Shown here: positions 5,295-63,983 of the stretch, one piece after another
Numbering within the stretch: position 1 is the first letter of the stretch
Layout of the letters: each line of letters starts with the position of its first letter
Source of the DNA: Escherichia phage rV5_ev147
Sequence record: LR597647
Length of the DNA: 64,000 bases
Strand: one strand, 5' to 3'
Program-made: the position numbers and the translations under genes
The notes under the pieces: model-generated
The model's database searches: none
Seen by the model: the letters and a program-made list of their open reading frames with translations, nothing else
What the model was told of the DNA's origin: nothing

Positions 5295-6577
5295 TGCATC
5301 AAATCAAAACAACACTGTACGCACTGAACAAAGATGGCAGCTACCAACAGTGGAAAGTATTCACGGATGGTGATAAGGTTATCGTAGAGTTTGGCAAGCT
5401 TGATGGTAAACTGCAATACAAAGAGACGATCTGCACACCTAAGAACGTGGGTCGCGCCAATGAGACTACAGCTGAGCAACAGGCCGAGCTGGAAGCGATC
5501 AGTAAGTGGGAAAAACAGGTCCGACTAGGGTACGTGGAGAGTATGGAAGATTGTGAGCAAGGTGTTGATCTTTTACCAATGTTAGTGCATGACTACCTGA
5601 AGCGTGGCAAGGCACTTAAATTACCTTGCTGGATCTTGCGTAAGTTAGATGGCCTTCGTCTACTTGTTGTTTTCCAGAATGGTGAGCCTAAATTTATTTC
5701 CCGTGGTAATAAGTCCTACCCTATTCAAGGAAAGCTTCTGGAGCAACTTCGCTCTTTCCACCTAACCACCGGGATTAAACAGCTCGACGGAGAGCTCTAT
5801 ATTCATGGTCTTCCTCTGCAGAAAATAGTGTCTCTTGCTAAACGGTGGCGCACACAGGAAGAAATTCAGGCCGAGATCGATAAAGACTACAAGGCAGATA
5901 AAAAACGCCGTCAGGCTGCGATTAAGGCAGGTTTAGCAACATACAAAAACTTCAACAAGATGGACATTCCTGTTGATGTTGAGCCTGTTCGTGATGATTT
6001 GCGTTACGGAGGGTACTGCAGCTACGACTTAGAGTATCATATTTTCGATATTCCTAGCGATAAGGTGTGGTGGGATCCTGAAACAGAGTCTGGACGCTGT
6101 AAGGATCTTATGGAGGCAAATGGTGCTATTGCTTCTTTGATGCTTGATCATATTAAGGTTGTTGATGCAGAGCTTGCATACACAGTTGATCGGTGCGAAG
6201 AGTCTGTTGGTATATTTATGTCTGAGGGATATGAAGGTACCATTATGCGTAACTTCTGTGGTAAATATGAGTATGGTCAGCGAACATCTGAAGCATTGAA
6301 ATGGAAAAAGTTCAACGACGCAGAGGTGAAAGTTATTGACGTTGAGAAAGATAAGAATGATGAAGGTGTTCTTATCTGTGTTGACAAGGAAGGTGTTGTT
6401 GTTAAAATGAAGATGAAAGGCACGCACGAGGAGCGTAGCTATGACAGGATGCAGGAAATGATCGGCAAGTTTGTCACCTTCAAATATCAAGCAAGGACAG
6501 AAGACAACAACTACCAATTCCCTGTCGGTATCTGCGTCCGAAATGTTAACCCAGACACTTGGGAGGTGCTGGAATGA
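5294..6577 (+). CDS. ATP-dependent DNA ligase
   Basis: Motif I KLDGLR, motif IV-like EGTIMRN, motif V-like KWKKF; ATGA overlap with upstream ORF. Confidence 0.55.
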   Translation: MHQIKTTLYALNKDGSYQQWKVFTDGDKVIVEFGKLDGKLQYKETICTPKNVGRANETTAEQQAELEAISKWEKQVRLGYVESMEDCEQGVDLLPMLVHDYLKRGKALKLPCWILRKLDGLRLLVVFQNGEPKFISRGNKSYPIQGKLLEQLRSFHLTTGIKQLDGELYIHGLPLQKIVSLAKRWRTQEEIQAEIDKDYKADKKRRQAAIKAGLATYKNFNKMDIPVDVEPVRDDLRYGGYCSYDLEYHIFDIPSDKVWWDPETESGRCKDLMEANGAIASLMLDHIKVVDAELAYTVDRCEESVGIFMSEGYEGTIMRNFCGKYEYGQRTSEALKWKKFNDAEVKVIDVEKDKNDEGVLICVDKEGVVVKMKMKGTHEERSYDRMQEMIGKFVTFKYQARTEDNNYQFPVGICVRNVNPDTWEVLE

Positions 6578-31977: not shown

Positions 31978-32261
31978 TAATGAAAAAGATTAACAGTAGT
32001 GAAGTAGAGTTTAAACTTGTCGGAAAAGGCACTTACTGGGAAGTTCGTCAAAAGGTATATTTGTTCGGTCTTATTCCCTACTGGTCTAAATTCTACTGGG
32101 GAGCTAACGAGTTGGGAAGATACGCCACCAAATCAATGGCACTTATTGGTATAGCAGAGTACATTGCAGCCCGAGACAGGGTTGGAACCACTTATTACTA
32201 CACTGCTGACGATATTCGTAACAGTGTTTACGTCCCACAACCACCTGATGGAGACCGTTGA
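31974..32261 (+). CDS. Hypothetical protein
   Basis: ORF overlapping by ATGA. Confidence 0.35.
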   Translation: MIMKKINSSEVEFKLVGKGTYWEVRQKVYLFGLIPYWSKFYWGANELGRYATKSMALIGIAEYIAARDRVGTTYYYTADDIRNSVYVPQPPDGDR

Positions 32262-32485
32262 TGAAAGTTAAAGTTTTAGATTCAAGCTTCTATATTGGTC
32301 AGGAGCCTTTAGTAGGAAAAGTGTTTACTGCTGTCCCTAACGAAGATTACCCTGACCTTTTAAAAATAAAAGGAGCAGATCTTATTGCCGCTGGTGCATC
32401 TCAGGAATGCTTTGACAGTCAGTGGACCTATAACTTTGCCCTAGGTGAGGATGTAGAGGTAGTGGAGGACGATCATGAAGGTTAA
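32258..32485 (+). CDS. Small acidic protein, paralog family A
   Basis: MKVKVLDSSFYIGQ...GKV...KGADLIAAGA...VEVVEDD. Confidence 0.5.
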   Translation: MMKVKVLDSSFYIGQEPLVGKVFTAVPNEDYPDLLKIKGADLIAAGASQECFDSQWTYNFALGEDVEVVEDDHEG

Positions 32486-32729
32486 AATTCTTGATTCTAA
32501 CGTCTACTTGGGACAATCCTTCCTGAATGGAAAGGTCGTTCCTGCGGTATACTTTGAAGGGTTGCCGTGGGATGATCCTGTGCGGCAACATCACAGTTAT
32601 GTAGGCCACAACGTGGTGTTTATCTTGGGATCAGACCTGATCACCGCTGGTGCACCTGAATATTATTTCGGGGAAGAGTCCTATTATGCCTTTGGGGCAG
32701 GGTCAGATGCAGATATTGTAGAACTGTGA
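32475..32729 (+). CDS. Small acidic protein, paralog family A
   Basis: MKVKILDSNVYLGQ...GKVV...LGSDLITAGA...DIVEL. Confidence 0.5.
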   Translation: MKVKILDSNVYLGQSFLNGKVVPAVYFEGLPWDDPVRQHHSYVGHNVVFILGSDLITAGAPEYYFGEESYYAFGAGSDADIVEL

Positions 32730-32741
32730 TGGGTAACCGTT

Positions 32742-33140
32742 GTGAAAAATAAACTATTCAAAGTTACAATGAAAATTCGCGGAGCTTGGAGCGTAAAGCA
32801 AGGGCGTATCCCAGAATTTGAGAAAGACTTCTACGTAGTCTCCACCTCGGAGGAGGCTGCATGCTGGCAGGCTGGCTATGCCTATGCAAGAACCTGGTAC
32901 GAAGGATACCAGACCGGGGGATATGACGGAGAAATTATCAGCAGGGGTGTGGAAGAAATTAATGTGTTGACAAGTGAAAAAGTTTTTGTTATAGTGCATC
33001 CAGATTCCAGAGTGAAGCATTACTGGAACGCCAGAACAAAAACTTGGACACCGTTTGCAGATTCTGCTACGCCACTTTTAAACCAGAAAGCTCTTGACTC
33101 TGCCCCAAGTTATGGGATTGTTGAAGAAAAGCTAAACTGA
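32742..33140 (+). CDS. Hypothetical protein, paralog of ORF 34946
   Basis: FVIVHPDSRVKHYWNARTKTWTP matches FVMRHPHSNIAYYWDVLNNEWTP in ORF 34946-35341. Confidence 0.45.
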   Translation: MKNKLFKVTMKIRGAWSVKQGRIPEFEKDFYVVSTSEEAACWQAGYAYARTWYEGYQTGGYDGEIISRGVEEINVLTSEKVFVIVHPDSRVKHYWNARTKTWTPFADSATPLLNQKALDSAPSYGIVEEKLN

Positions 33141-33454: not shown

Positions 33455-33484
33455 TTGACACAACGCTTCAGATTTAGTATCATT
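33455..33484 (+). promoter_or_regulatory. Sigma70-type promoter upstream of hpf
   Basis: TTGACA (33455-33460), 18-bp spacer, TATCAT (33479-33484). Confidence 0.45.
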
Positions 33485-33530
33485 GTTTTAAAAGAGGGTT
33501 TGGTTCCCTCTTCTTTAAAAGGAACACGTT

Positions 33531-33848
33531 ATGCAAATTGAAATCACTGGCAACGTAGAAATCACTGAAGGTATGGTGTCTTTCATTTCCCACAAAATGT
33601 CTAAGCTGGAGCGTTTGCACCCATCTGCCAACTATGCACGTGTGAGTGTAAAAGTTGAAAATGATCACCAGGAAGTTATGGCGTTCATTTTTGACAATTC
33701 TGGAAAAGAAGTTATTGCCAAGGCTAAAGGCAGTGATGCTTACGAGGCAACTGACCGTATGGTAGATGTTGCAGCACGTCAGCTGGCTAAATGCGGTGGA
33801 AAGAAAGGTAAGGGGAAAGGCAAAGTAAAGATTGACTTTGGAGAATGA
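33531..33848 (+). CDS. hpf: Ribosome hibernation promoting factor / RaiA-family protein
   Basis: MQIEITGNVEITEG...KLERL...VSVKVEN...AKGSDAYEATD...ARQLAK parallels E. coli HPF over its length, as recalled. Confidence 0.7.
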   Translation: MQIEITGNVEITEGMVSFISHKMSKLERLHPSANYARVSVKVENDHQEVMAFIFDNSGKEVIAKAKGSDAYEATDRMVDVAARQLAKCGGKKGKGKGKVKIDFGE

Positions 33849-33985
33849 GGTGCTACAATGGGTGTGATTGAGAAATTAGTCCCAAATGTAGAGATTGCAT
33901 GCTTTGAAATTATGTTTGCAATCGCAGTTGTAGTTAATGTGTTAGGTTACGGCTATTAATATCAAATAATTGAGGAGACCTCTAA

Positions 33986-34255
33986 ATGAAAATTAAATTA
34001 TTCAAAACTGAGCTGGCAGACAAAAATTGTGGTCTGGTTGAAGGCATGATTGTTGAAGCACAACCAGTGGACTATATGAAGGTGGTTCGTGATGCCCTGG
34101 GTGAAGGTTTTGATCTGATGGAGCCAGCCCTGCGGGAAGATGTTATCGAGATGGCTAAAAAGCACACACCTGAAGGTTTGGTGGTGTTTATTGCACCGGG
34201 TAACGGAGAAGAGTTGATTGTAACTCCTGATGTGTATGAGATTGTAGAGGAATAA
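33986..34255 (+). CDS. Small acidic protein, paralog family B
   Basis: MKIKLFK...GEGFDL...VVFIAPGNGEE...YEIVEE aligns with ORFs 35418 and 35679. Confidence 0.45.
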   Translation: MKIKLFKTELADKNCGLVEGMIVEAQPVDYMKVVRDALGEGFDLMEPALREDVIEMAKKHTPEGLVVFIAPGNGEELIVTPDVYEIVEE

Positions 34256-34345: not shown

Positions 34346-34609
34346 ATGATTGTTTATTTTAAAACTTCAGGTGGATACCCTGATTCTCAAAGCTTGATCG
34401 GAAAAACGTGCACAGCATACTCACCTCTTGATGAGGAGGTAAGCGATATTCTACGAAATATGTATCGGATTGATCCCCAAGAAGCTTTTGATCAAAACCT
34501 TGTATTTGTCAAGGGCTCAGACATGAAGTCTTTGGGAGCATTCCCTGAAGCAGATGATGATGCCGTTTATTCGTTCATGACCCCTTTTGAAGCTATGGTT
34601 GTTGGGTGA
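34346..34609 (+). CDS. Small acidic protein, paralog family A
   Basis: GGYPDSQSLIGK...LVFVKGSDMKSLGA shared with ORF 28699. Confidence 0.45.
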   Translation: MIVYFKTSGGYPDSQSLIGKTCTAYSPLDEEVSDILRNMYRIDPQEAFDQNLVFVKGSDMKSLGAFPEADDDAVYSFMTPFEAMVVG

Positions 34610-34613
34610 TAAT

Positions 34614-34946
34614 ATGAAAGTACGCTTTATTGGTGAAACAATTCCTGTGCATCTCAGGTCGCCTGAAGATTCTGCGGATCTTGCATCTCAGAAGGCGAGA
34701 GGTTATGATAAGAAAGTAATCTCAACCGATGTAGAACTTGAGGCTACTAGTCTACCTGACCCTGCTGCATTCTTTAATCATTATGGATACTATTTCAGCA
34801 ATCTGATGAATATCGGTGAGCTTGTGTTTATTAGTGGTGGAGAAATTGTTAGCAAGCTTGGCGGCGATCCGGATATCTTTCATGAAACCTGTCCTTTTGC
34901 ATTTGTGGTAGGTTCAGATGTGGAAGTTATTGAGGAGGTGCGGTAA
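34614..34946 (+). CDS. Small acidic protein, family-related
   Basis: Start refined to ATG 34614 (MKVRFIGE); ends VEVIEEVR. Confidence 0.4.
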   Translation: MKVRFIGETIPVHLRSPEDSADLASQKARGYDKKVISTDVELEATSLPDPAAFFNHYGYYFSNLMNIGELVFISGGEIVSKLGGDPDIFHETCPFAFVVGSDVEVIEEVR

Positions 34947-35341
34947 TGGTAAGCCTATACCGTGTTGAGTATAGCTCAGATACTGTATACAACGTAAGAA
35001 GCAAAGATCGCAGCGACAGAGTGCAAGAAATGTATGTTCTTGCCGACAGTCCGTTATCTGCAGCGTTCAAGGCAGGGGCTCTTGCATCTCGTTGGAAATT
35101 TGAAGGTGGATCTTTCTATGAAGAAACCCTTGAAGATTCTGTTGTTATTTCTTCTGTAGAGGTTTCAGATGACTACGAAGGGAAAAAGTTCGTAATGCGG
35201 CACCCACACAGCAACATTGCGTACTACTGGGATGTTCTGAACAACGAGTGGACCCCAGATCTTCAGAAGGCTACTGTGCTAACACCGTTTTTGGCAGATA
35301 AGTTCCCACCAGAAGGTAATTTATCCGCACTGTTTCAGTAA
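34946..35341 (+). CDS. Hypothetical protein, paralog of ORF 32742
   Basis: Shared HP(D/H)S...YW...WTP block with ORF 32742-33140. Confidence 0.45.
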   Translation: MVSLYRVEYSSDTVYNVRSKDRSDRVQEMYVLADSPLSAAFKAGALASRWKFEGGSFYEETLEDSVVISSVEVSDDYEGKKFVMRHPHSNIAYYWDVLNNEWTPDLQKATVLTPFLADKFPPEGNLSALFQ

Positions 35342-59378: not shown

Positions 59379-59707
59379 GCTTCCTCGTCGTCTAAGTAAT
59401 CATCAAGAGAGGTGAAGATTTCACCGAAGTATTCTAAGATTTCTAGCTCACGTGTGGTGCAGCAAACATAATCTCCTTGGTCGTCCTTAATAGTGGCCTC
59501 TTTACCCAGAATATCTACTTCAAGTTCATCGTTCAACAGGACGGCCCCTGTGTAAACTTTGTCAGCTGTGCAGTCCCGAAAAGCAGAGTCCTTCTCCAGA
59601 TAGTCTGGCTTAACCTTGGCTTTAATTCGTTGATATTGTTTGGTCATTGCTGTGGTCCCCTTTCGTTTTGATAGGGCCATTATAGTAGGCCCTATCACTG
59701 TTGTCAA
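59375..59707 (-). CDS. Hypothetical protein, paralog of ORF 59711
   Basis: SAFRDCTADKVYTGA matches RAFKDCTVGAIYEAE in the neighbouring ORF. Confidence 0.4.
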   Translation of the reverse strand: MTTVIGPTIMALSKRKGTTAMTKQYQRIKAKVKPDYLEKDSAFRDCTADKVYTGAVLLNDELEVDILGKEATIKDDQGDYVCCTTRELEILEYFGEIFTSLDDYLDDEEA

Positions 59708-61205: not shown

Positions 61206-63983
61206 TTAGTGACAATCACCCCAATTACGACCACACAAGTATTCACCTGTGATCTGGAACGGGACTCCCATCATTTTAGAAGCTTGCCAGAAGCAATGCA
61301 CCACCATTTCACCCACAGGGCTCCAGATAAGTTCAAGCTTCCCGTCATCGTTCAGGATAGGATCGTACACCGTGTTTCCGTCTCTGTCAACCACTTCGTT
61401 TCCGTTCTCATCCTTGCGTGCCTTTTTGTACTTATGACCGTCAAACACATGAAGTTTGGCTTCCTGCTCTGCCTTAAATGCTTCCAATTCTTCAATTGTG
61501 TCGAAGGTGTACACAGTCTTATACTTAGGCGTGTCAGGGACTTGAAGTTGGTACTCATCATGGTAATAAATAATACGACGAACACCTTCATCGTACCACC
61601 CACGCTTCACCATTTGGTGGTGCATGAGTATCCCAACTAAGTCACACAACGATGCACCGCCATTTTGTTGGTATGCATTGAGTAAAGAGTGTTTAGATCG
61701 AGTCCAGATAGCATGACCATCAAAAGAGTAGATAAACTTCTTACCCGTTGCTTCCCAGAATTTCTCCAGATCTTCTTTACGCCCCTTAAGACCCGGGTTG
61801 GCATCCCAGAGTGCATCGATTACCCTTTGTCCCAACTCTGGAGAGATATCCAGCATATCTGCAACTTTATCTTTTTGTGCCCCGTACATAACCCCATACG
61901 TGATAGGTTTACCGTCGTTACGAGATACCTCTCTGCCTGCTACTTTTGTATATGCCTCGGCGTTGTTTTGGTGTGCGTCTCCGTTACTTACAACATCATA
62001 ATACAAGCCGTTGTCGAACTCAAAGGCACCCCAAGCCCCGATAAGCTGCTCTAAGTTGGACCCGTCAATACCGATCTCAAAGTATCCCGGAGGAACACCC
62101 CACAGACTACGCATCTCTTTACCCATAACCACTTTAGGAGATGGTTTAGGCATGTTCGCACAAATACTGTGTTTCTGTCGGGAAGTGTTTGTTAACCCAG
62201 AACTTTTAGCAGGAAGCTTATGGTCAATCTTCAAACGTGGGTGATTAAGAAGACCAGTATCAACCTTATCCTCCTTGATTGGATCAAGTACCGATCTGCG
62301 GTTTCGCAATGATAACCACAAGACGATATCTTTAGCCATCTCTCCGTTCAATTTTTCAAGATTAGGGCATAGGTGTCCAAACGTATCTTTCAGTTGCGGA
62401 GAAGTAATAAGTGCCCTAGCTTTTCTACGTATTTTCCCGAATACTTCCTTTTTAATCCTTTCGGAGTTAGGAAAGCTTCGGAACTTGTGCACGGTTGTCT
62501 GGAACTTAGCATCAGTTTTGTTCCAGAAGTTGATAATCAGGTCACAATACTCTGACTCTAAAAGCTCGTCCATATATGCATATACTCGTGCATCAACATC
62601 TGCATCAGGTAGAGCTTTCTTCTTGCTGTCTTTAGTTACATCCTTAGTTCTCCACATTGTCGGAAGCCAACCAGCACTGATCAGGTATCGCTTAATGTCG
62701 TCCTGGTTGCTGATTTTCATAGGTATCTTGCAGTCCGGCATTCGCTTCTGCTGTAGATCACTTATTGCCTGATCCATTAGCTCTTTAGGTAAAGGTTGTG
62801 GTGTGGAGGTGCCCTTAATATAGCCTCTCAAGAAATCAGCCATCTTATCGGGGTCTTTGCAGCCCATCTCTTCACACCATTTTATCCCCATCTTACTGAC
62901 ATCTCCTGTAGAGGTAAATGCTCGCTTAGGCGGGGCTTTGAACTCTAAAGCGCTCATATCTACAGGATAGCCAAGCTTATCTTTTAACCATTTCCAACCA
63001 TTATTGGAGATTGTCCCATCTTGGTTAAACGGCTTTTCAGGGAACTTGGGCCGCTGAGACATTGACAGCTCTTTTAAAGGTAGTTGCGGTTCAACACGAT
63101 CAGCGATTTCTTTCATCCACGCATCGCAACGGTCACGTAAAGCAATAGCCCCATCTATGTCAAAATACACACCCTGACGGGCCTGCAGCTCCATCAGGAA
63201 GTGCTGCAGCATGCCTCGGCGTAATGCGTTCTTCCAGGTGATCTTCTTGAACCCTTTCGGCTTCTCTTTGGCAGGATCGTACATAAAGTTCTGCATGTCA
63301 GATTTGCCGTAGAATACACCTTTTGATTCCGCTACCAGCTCTTTCCAGAGCAGCTCCTGGATGATAACGTCCTCGAATACACGATCCACATACTTCCACA
63401 ACGGAAGATCGCGCCAGTCATCAATTTGAACTTTCTGGTTACCAAGGGCGTAGCCCCATGCCATAAGGCCGTGAGGACCGACAGGCTGCATTTTCTTAGT
63501 AACCGGGTTGAATACAGAGTCCGGACAACCTTTTGGTAAAGGGCGATCAGGCCATAAGATTCGGCTCATCGCCAACGTATCAAACAGGTTGACCTGGTGG
63601 TCGTTGATAGTCCCCATGCATTTAGGATCACGGAACATATCAAAATGAATACCGGATAATCTTTCCATCAGCATAAAGTCATAACTGTAGCAGTTATGGC
63701 AGTTCAAAGCTGTTGGTGACCAGTCGGAATTGCCTGTAAGCCAACCTTCTAACTCCGAAAAATCTGCTATGCGAACTTCAAAATCTTTATAAAGAGTTTT
63801 CTTTGCCAGAATAAAGTTCTTAGCCTTCTCTATATCCTCCTCGGAGTAGTGTGTGCGGTCATTTAGAGGAAGGAACAGCATAAAACGGTTCTTATTCAGC
63901 TCTTTAAACAGGCCGCAGTGATAATAAAGATCTGGGTCTTCCAGCAAACCGGATGACTCAAAATCGAAAGACCACATGCTCAT
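61206..63983 (-). CDS. Family A DNA polymerase, T7 gp5-like, with 3'-5' exonuclease domain
   Basis: 925 aa; FDFESSG (Exo I), LMAWGYALGNQK, GIDGSNLEQL, TYGVMYGAQ (motif B), YYHDEYQ (motif C), C-terminal GRNWGDCH parallel T7 gp5 as recalled; AAGGAG SD. Confidence 0.8.
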   Translation of the reverse strand: MSMWSFDFESSGLLEDPDLYYHCGLFKELNKNRFMLFLPLNDRTHYSEEDIEKAKNFILAKKTLYKDFEVRIADFSELEGWLTGNSDWSPTALNCHNCYSYDFMLMERLSGIHFDMFRDPKCMGTINDHQVNLFDTLAMSRILWPDRPLPKGCPDSVFNPVTKKMQPVGPHGLMAWGYALGNQKVQIDDWRDLPLWKYVDRVFEDVIIQELLWKELVAESKGVFYGKSDMQNFMYDPAKEKPKGFKKITWKNALRRGMLQHFLMELQARQGVYFDIDGAIALRDRCDAWMKEIADRVEPQLPLKELSMSQRPKFPEKPFNQDGTISNNGWKWLKDKLGYPVDMSALEFKAPPKRAFTSTGDVSKMGIKWCEEMGCKDPDKMADFLRGYIKGTSTPQPLPKELMDQAISDLQQKRMPDCKIPMKISNQDDIKRYLISAGWLPTMWRTKDVTKDSKKKALPDADVDARVYAYMDELLESEYCDLIINFWNKTDAKFQTTVHKFRSFPNSERIKKEVFGKIRRKARALITSPQLKDTFGHLCPNLEKLNGEMAKDIVLWLSLRNRRSVLDPIKEDKVDTGLLNHPRLKIDHKLPAKSSGLTNTSRQKHSICANMPKPSPKVVMGKEMRSLWGVPPGYFEIGIDGSNLEQLIGAWGAFEFDNGLYYDVVSNGDAHQNNAEAYTKVAGREVSRNDGKPITYGVMYGAQKDKVADMLDISPELGQRVIDALWDANPGLKGRKEDLEKFWEATGKKFIYSFDGHAIWTRSKHSLLNAYQQNGGASLCDLVGILMHHQMVKRGWYDEGVRRIIYYHDEYQLQVPDTPKYKTVYTFDTIEELEAFKAEQEAKLHVFDGHKYKKARKDENGNEVVDRDGNTVYDPILNDDGKLELIWSPVGEMVVHCFWQASKMMGVPFQITGEYLCGRNWGDCH

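Follow-up and report, generated by a model that had tools for sequence, protein, structure and literature searches.

Proteins of the HPF/YfiA family are now understood as ribosome hibernation factors. According to a cryo-EM preprint (bioRxiv 10.1101/2025.10.07.680626), the only residues identical in E. coli HPF and YfiA that touch the ribosome are K80, R83, K87 and K91. In that study, further contacts are made by K89 and by K26/Q29, the H55/E60 pair reaches the C-terminus of uS9, T53/H62 reach m2G966, and the tail of YfiA heads towards the RMF site (bioRxiv 10.1101/2025.10.07.680626).

Phages can also carry members of this family. Mizuno et al. (2019; Nat Commun 10:752, PMC6375957) counted gp139 of phage rV5 among the phage HPFs in their Table 1 and discussed its phylogeny. 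They also tested it: E. coli NM522 with the rV5 gene on pBAD24 was grown in 1 mM arabinose from the overnight pre-culture to an OD600 of 1, the ribosomes were pelleted through a 500 mM NH4Cl sucrose cushion and separated on 10-50% gradients, and the 70S and 100S ribosomes were analyzed by mass spectrometry. Gp139 was represented by four peptides in the crude extract and by none in the 70S or 100S ribosomes, and the small 100S peak was unaltered by gp139 expression. In this one published test, gp139 thus differed from E. coli HPF in showing neither stable ribosome association nor an effect on 100S ribosomes. In the same experiments the ribosomes did take up phage bS21 and bL12. The reasons considered possible are that the growth phase (end of exponential) was the wrong one, that gp139 was lost in the salt wash, or that ribosome binding has genuinely been lost (PMC6375957).

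Two other phage proteins invite comparison. The bS21 of pelagiphage HTVC008M follows the same concept, in which a phage carries a host-derived ribosome-binding protein; it entered E. coli ribosomes, whereas gp139 was undetected there (PMC6375957). The HPF of Cronobacter phage GAP32 represents the same concept and, according to Mizuno et al. (2019, PMC6375957), a separate and more divergent acquisition. This protein was not recovered by our tblastn searches with the phage protein, E. coli HPF and a Firmicutes-like HPF core. In the literature that we searched, nothing on phage HPF went beyond Mizuno et al. (2019).

The locus reported here is in a 64,000-nucleotide stretch of Escherichia phage rV5_ev147 (record LR597647), which we refer to as the window. 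The window, which shows 100% identity to Escherichia phage rV5_ev156, belongs to a phage of the rV5 type (Vequintavirus), in agreement with a preliminary description, made from the sequence alone, that took the gene to be encoded by a phage. The ORF at 33531..33848 corresponds to rV5 gp139/ORF144, and its 105-aa product is identical to ABI79209 / YP_002003641. The gene, its family and its promoter are already known, and our finding is a re-discovery, because the rV5 records annotate both the gene and promoter P144, and because the study of Mizuno et al. covers exactly this protein (PMC6375957). What we add is the set of residue differences from cellular HPF (K80V, K89G, K64/K66 and the Gly/Lys tail), the conservation of the gene across the genus and a list of mis-annotated records. 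The features of the locus are as follows.

33455..33460, + strand: -35 hexamer TTGACA of promoter P144 (consensus match; annotated in NC_011041)
33478..33483, + strand: -10 hexamer TATCAT of P144, following a 17-nt spacer
33492..33512, + strand: 7-bp hairpin AAGAGGG-N7-CCCTCTT at the predicted 5′ end of the mRNA (fold prediction)
33519..33523, + strand: Shine-Dalgarno-like AAGGA, 7 nt before the ATG (sequence reading)
33531..33848, + strand: ORF of the HPF homologue, ATG start, 105 aa
33531..33791, + strand: part of this ORF predicted to encode the S30AE domain (Pfam PF02482, AlphaFold2, Foldseek and dN/dS)
33792..33848, + strand: Lys/Gly-rich C-terminal tail, residues 88-105, plus the stop codon (pLDDT and composition)
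33858..33959, + strand: 33-aa hydrophobic ORF, rV5 gp140, which starts 10 nt after the HPF stop

Residues 3-88 of gp139 match Pfam PF02482 (Ribosomal_S30AE) with an E-value of 1.8e-12 and 48.3 bits (gathering cut-off 23.7 bits), and the protein passes the TIGR00741 HPF/YfiA family model with 45.9 bits (cut-off 40.9). Its best sequence matches in the PDB are structures of E. coli HPF (2rql/4v8h/6h4n; HMMER, E = 5e-12, residues 1-89 aligned to 1-89), with which it shares 43% identity over 87-88 aa. The preliminary description had aligned the 105-aa product with E. coli HPF by shared motifs and placed it in the HPF/RaiA family; all of these motifs (MQ-I-ITGN-VEITE, KLE, VKVE, A-G-D-Y-A-D and RQL-K) are present in the HMMER alignment, and the Ribosomal_S30AE profile search and the predicted fold agree with the family that it named. 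Relative to E. coli HPF (YhbH; 2rql, 6h4n), with which the domain is shared over its whole length, gp139 is one residue shorter in the beta1-alpha1 loop and one residue longer in the beta3-beta4 loop, and the two numbering schemes coincide from about residue 60 on.

The AlphaFold2 model of gp139 has an overall pLDDT of 85.5; the ten-residue blocks across residues 1-80 reach 90-96, and the block 81-90 has a value of 82. Its predicted secondary structure comprises strands at residues 2-7, 33-43, 46-55 and 60-67 and helices at residues 13-29 and 70-89. When this model was compared with the PDB using Foldseek, the top match was V. cholerae HPF (4hei; rmsd 1.0 Å, target-normalised TM 0.93), and E. 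coli HPF on the hibernating 100S ribosome (6h4n_x) was matched with a target-normalised TM of 0.92. All significant matches (37 of 37) are hibernation factors of the HPF/YfiA family. It is close to certain that gp139 is a homologue of the known HPF family, and membership judged from sequence and predicted fold appears as secure as computation allows.

Within the family, the best-scoring NCBIfam model is the HPF equivalog NF007780 (55.8 bits, far under its cut-off of 125), whereas the RaiA/YfiA model NF007654 gave 17.6 bits, below its cut-off of 158. The identity of gp139 to E. coli YfiA is 26%, using a manually entered YfiA sequence as the query, and the tails cannot be aligned. These comparisons of sequence support a position on the HPF side of the family and not with RaiA. 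The RefSeq product name “RaiA” is imprecise, because both the model score and the identity are higher for HPF (55.8 vs. 17.6 bits; 43 vs. 26%). The C-terminal dimerisation domain of long HPF is absent from gp139, which is 105 aa in length and in which PF02482 (residues 3-88) was the only domain found. The best explanation of these results is that gp139 belongs to the short-HPF branch of the HPF/YfiA hibernation-factor family, as a divergent member adapted to the phage.

The names given to this gene are diverse. In rV5 records gp139 is called “sigma 54 modulation factor” or “RaiA,” and most related records annotate the gene too, under names that include HPF, ribosome hibernation factor and RaiA. 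If the first of these names were taken at its word, gp139 would regulate RpoN-dependent transcription. The label is the one point in favor of such a role, and it is a legacy of similarity to an ORF of the Klebsiella rpoN operon; every solved relative is ribosome-bound or ribosome-associated, and we give sigma-54 modulation almost no credence.

In several vequintavirus records, the label “sigma 54 modulation factor” stands on a neighboring 89-aa gene (window 33986..34255, + strand), and in some it appears twice within one record. Records with the misplaced label are KR698074 (APCEc02_082), MN850593 (inoa_99), MN850626, MN850597 and MN850627, and in APCEc02 the true HPF is named “hypothetical protein.” The 89-aa neighbor was considered as a second HPF and rejected, as it has no Pfam match and its label reflects an annotation shift. 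In OR062525, OR062528, OR062530 and MT884008-MT884011 the name “ATP-dependent protease La type I” has been given to the HPF gene, which is clearly wrong.

We compared the residues through which E. coli HPF contacts the ribosome with their equivalents in gp139. Three of the four universally conserved basic residues that contact rRNA are retained (R83, K87 and K91), and the fourth, K80, is replaced by Val in gp139 and by Thr in an uncultured sister clade (see below). K89 is Gly in gp139, and the Gly-Gly at positions 89-90 is predicted to terminate helix alpha2, with K91 located after the break. Elsewhere on this surface, K26 and Q29 of E. coli HPF correspond to K25 and R28, E60 is retained, and both T53 and H55 are Phe. 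S64 and E66 are replaced by Lys in both phage clades, which places new residues K64/K66 on strand beta4. Overall, the contact positions of gp139 are kept no better than the 43% identity of the whole protein predicts. The contact surface thus appears, from the alignment, to be partly kept and partly remodelled, a pattern that fits weaker or altered binding and proves neither retention nor loss of binding.

Our preferred reading, to which we assign a probability of roughly 0.45, is that host RNA polymerase would transcribe the gp139 gene from the sigma-70 promoter P144, presumably early in infection, and that gp139 would, as its cellular relatives do, dock in the 30S decoding channel of idle host ribosomes, but in a weak, reversible and salt-labile manner. 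There it may keep vacant ribosomes parked or protected as 70S monomers while the mRNA of the host is being lost. Docking would be weak and reversible because K80 and K89 have been lost and because the helical basic C-terminus has been exchanged for a flexible Lys/Gly tail. We infer this role from the family membership, the kept residues K25, R28, E60, R83, K87 and K91, the conservation of K64/K66 in both phage clades, the purifying selection, the genus-wide presence and the promoter. Against it stands the published observation that gp139 was missing from 70S and 100S ribosomes washed in 500 mM NH4Cl though it was in the extract, so that the protein may truly have ceased to bind ribosomes. The replacements at K80, K89 and T53/H55, and a retention of contact positions no higher than the overall identity, also count against it.

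If binding has been lost, the HPF fold may have been neofunctionalised for a new ligand, for instance a host protein, a nucleotide signal or a different RNA. The Acb4 sponges, which have a dsRBD-like fold similar to that of hibernation factors, could be a model. The failure to find gp139 in salt-washed ribosomes (PMC6375957) would be expected in this case, and purifying selection is still strong although K80 and K89 are lost and the beta3/beta4 surface is altered; in addition, the authors who described Acb4 report structural similarity to V. cholerae HPF. However, the significant fold matches are hibernation factors without exception, R83, K87, K91, K25 and E60 are kept, and the negative binding result carries an obvious salt caveat. 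We consider a new ligand in place of the ribosome unlikely. An Acb4-like sponge in particular was rejected, as SPO1 Acb4 (9e4w) matched the gp139 model at E = 0.02 with a TM of about 0.51, at rank 46 behind every hibernation factor, and no PDB sequence match between Acb4 and gp139 was found at E <1. A T7 Gp1.2-like reading of gp139 was dropped on fold scores.

The C-terminal tail of gp139 (residues 88-105, CGGKKGKGKGKVKIDFGE) contains 6 Lys and 6 Gly in 18 residues and has a net charge of +4, as expected from the Lys/Gly-rich extension pointed out beforehand. It is predicted to be disordered, with pLDDT <50 at residues 93-100 of the AlphaFold2 model. E. coli HPF instead ends in the helical KHKDKLKQH. 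The predicted pI of gp139 is 8.7, compared with 6.5 for E. coli HPF, and the rise is due to the tail. Most orthologues have the tail intact; it is truncated in Murica (99 aa) and frameshifted in APCEc02 (101 aa). The HPF of the sister clade has another basic tail in its place (KYSKSKGIDKRTAKWDY). Between the most diverged pairs of orthologues the tail is also conserved, with synonymous vs. non-synonymous differences of 6 vs. 1 and 4 vs. 1. The constant property of the tail is its basic charge and not its exact sequence.

The tail bears on a proposal put forward by Mizuno et al. (2019, PMC6375957), in which gp139 would be an antagonist of host hibernation. The protein would compete with host HPF, YfiA or RMF for one and the same site, its tail might occlude the RMF site, and 100S formation would be prevented or reversed, leaving ribosomes for phage mRNAs, for example during slow growth or defence-induced dormancy. 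Consistent with this, gp139 has 18 residues past the RQLxK motif, compared with 8 in E. coli HPF, the tail of YfiA runs towards the RMF site, and the role of a competitor would suit weak and reversible binding. E. coli RaiA/YfiA (protein Y) has the fold predicted for gp139, and both extend C-terminally past the length of HPF. However, the basic, Gly-rich tail of gp139 is unrelated to that of YfiA in sequence and composition, and some viable isolates have it truncated or frameshifted. Moreover, the small 100S peak did not change when gp139 was expressed (PMC6375957), and ribosome binding by gp139 itself is unproven. We regard antagonism of hibernation as improbable.

The preliminary description had assigned the gene a promoter of its own, TTGACA-18-TATCAT, 50 bp upstream. 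The two hexamers and the start of the promoter stand, and the distances need correction: the hexamers are 17 nt apart, and 47 nt separate the end of the -10 hexamer from the ATG. The hexamers match the sigma-70 consensus at 11 of 12 positions, and the site is annotated as “Sigma70-type promoter; P144” in GenBank DQ832317 and RefSeq NC_011041. The -35 TTGACA is identical in every vequintavirus orthologue whose read stretch covers the hexamer and also in the sister clade with 64% identity, and the -10 is TATCAT or TATTAT, each matching 5 of 6 consensus positions. These in silico results support P144 as a near-consensus, host-type promoter of the HPF gene. The literature that we searched yielded no data on its transcription start site or timing.

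A lone promoter-like match is weak evidence: a general promoter scan of the region from 30.5 to 37 kb gave 15 such sites, with 12.9 expected. Restricting the search to sites with at least 11 of 12 matches gave 19 in the window, compared with 1.9 ± 1.35 in first-order Markov resamples. The strand of these 19 sites tracks gene orientation (+ below 40 kb and - above 42 kb). P144 is, as a member of this class, more than a chance match, because 19 sites were found where about 2 were expected and because their strand follows that of the genes. Examples of near-consensus sites are at 6381, 24255, 29259, 33455 and 35360 on the + strand and at 59707, 54411 and 48553 on the - strand. The 19 near-consensus promoters, switching strand with the genes, suggest heavy reliance on unmodified host RNA polymerase.

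Downstream of P144, a ribosome binding site is annotated in phage Murica at the position equivalent to that of the AAGGA. The hairpin at 33492-33512 has an MFE of -11.8 kcal/mol with a z-score of only -1.05, and it varies between orthologues. We rejected it as a regulatory element or terminator, given this z-score, the lack of a call in the terminator scan and its absence from the sister clade. A search of the region upstream of the HPF gene against Rfam (raiA motif and others) gave no match at E ≤1, and one chance match to RT-17 was found further downstream.

A promoter close to the sigma-70 consensus suggests early expression, which would suit the function proposed in the preliminary description, namely that gp139 dimerises or silences ribosomes and possibly shuts off host protein synthesis. 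In this scenario, the decoding centre would be blocked or ribosomes dimerised, or translation-targeting defences would be evaded. Such an effect is the canonical activity of the HPF/YfiA family. However, occupancy of this site would block phage translation equally, with no selectivity for host over phage mRNA. The published results, in which washed 70S and 100S ribosomes lacked gp139 and 100S ribosomes did not increase, do not support the proposal (PMC6375957). Cells tolerated continuous expression up to an OD600 of 1 with normal ribosome profiles. From this growth under continuous induction and the normal 70S/100S profile, we infer that gp139 was no potent general translation inhibitor under those conditions. 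No RMF partner was found in the window either (tblastn with a manually entered RMF query gave nothing below E = 2.6), and gp139 is without the dimerisation domain of long HPF. It is unlikely that gp139 shuts off translation or drives the formation of 100S dimers, and we judge the shut-off scenario as a whole very doubtful. The preliminary description had also named a lack of detectable ribosome binding as an outcome that would speak against it. The published test was negative on this point (PMC6375957), which counts against that description in part, given the caveats of 500 mM NH4Cl and growth phase.

The gene that follows, gp140, is annotated at most of the orthologous loci, standing directly after the HPF gene in rV5, V18, JES2013, Murica, inoa and phita32, and it has no Pfam family. 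It is probably co-transcribed with the HPF gene. A promoter-like TTGACT-16-TACAAT at 33832..33859 overlaps the gp140 start codon. Paralogous small genes flank the HPF gene on both sides (32258..33140 and 34346..35341, + strand), none of them with a Pfam family. For instance, the products of 32258..32485 and 32475..32729 share 40% identity (E = 2e-14), and those of 32742..33140 and 34946..35341 share 28% (E = 2e-8). These paralogues are within a block of 88 mainly small ORFs described in the rV5 genome paper.

We examined the distribution of the gene using orthologues drawn from GenBank phage records, to which IMG/VR added only 2 loci and a word-indexed protein search 5 matches. Over the 2-kb region tested, 118 phage records are at least 90% identical to the window, almost all of them Vequintavirus. 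By tblastn with the phage protein, E. coli HPF and the Firmicutes-like HPF core, the HPF gene was detected in about 118 vequintavirus records, and the records with a DNA polymerase at least 90% identical to that of the window also number 118. Outside the vequintaviruses, the tblastn matches were limited to a few short contigs lacking annotation and a single bacterial contig that had been placed with the phages. In neighboring genera, whose polymerase is 53-59% identical (Klebsiella KB57-like, Av-05 and others), tblastn gave no HPF match. As the records with HPF equal those with the polymerase and the neighboring genera have none, the HPF gene looks like a genus-level core gene.

Several records in this set have peculiarities of their own. 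The family-A DNA polymerase gene (61206..63983, - strand) is intact in the window and is split by insertion of an HNH/homing endonuclease in MN850597, MZ501048 and MG065677, where tblastn returned it in two pieces. Eighteen UNVERIFIED “Campylobacter phage” records (MG0656xx; e.g., L015, MG065677.1), with C. jejuni given as the host, are vequintaviruses. With rV5-type coliphages they share an identity of at least 98% in HPF and at least 99% in DNA polymerase. Their host label is doubtful. The HPF of phage inoa (L012, MN850593.1 63964..64263) lacks six N-terminal residues and begins MQIEITEG... where others begin MQIEITGNVEITEG...; a deletion between the two EIT repeats would account for the difference and would take away part of strand beta1. 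JES2013 has GTG instead of ATG as its start codon.

When 1.84 billion cluster representatives were scanned exhaustively with HMMER, only one close relative emerged, a 103-aa protein (P0004) that is 64-65% identical to gp139. The syntenic phage contigs that encode it (~125-137 kb) come from assemblies of metagenomes and read archives and represent an uncultured sister clade. Sister-clade loci (L003-L006) are in the Logan assemblies ERR6997038, ERR4623478 and SRR25571739 and in ENA ERZ16268152. The variant was found in none of 50,697 phage genomes, and NCBI files the protein under Escherichia coli. The second-best match of the scan (P0006, 1160 aa, 8 matched stretches) was rejected as spurious, being a PPC-repeat protein whose score is amplified by the repeats. 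The true homologues that rank next are short HPFs of enterobacteria, with ~35-53 bits and up to 45% identity.

The GC content of the HPF gene is 42.8%, compared with 42.7% for the phage, and its GC3 is 38.7%, compared with 39.5 ± 4.7% for neighboring genes. This phage-like composition, together with an identity of only 43% to the host HPF, indicates an old transfer and not the “relatively recent” one that Mizuno et al. (2019) suggested. The best explanation is that the gene was acquired long ago by an ancestor of Vequintavirus and the one sister clade. In the core of the protein, dN/dS between the most diverged pairs is 0.04-0.11, about 0.05 (Nei-Gojobori; e.g., 25 synonymous vs. 5 non-synonymous differences and 23 vs. 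5). The HPF gene is under strong purifying selection.

A broader conjecture is that the vequintavirus HPF is no stable silencer and that its fold was kept for a job specific to the phage. The protein could act as a fast-exchanging competitor, its tail set against RMF/HPF hibernation or ribosome-targeting toxins, or as a decoy or binder away from the ribosome. Such a job would explain why gp139 is absent from washed ribosomes and yet evolves with a dN/dS of about 0.05; we consider it unlikely. Phage genes that act directly on the ribosome are rare, and here a homologue of HPF has persisted throughout a genus of coliphages used in therapy and typing. The genus-wide presence of a phage HPF hints at viral control of the pool of idle ribosomes.
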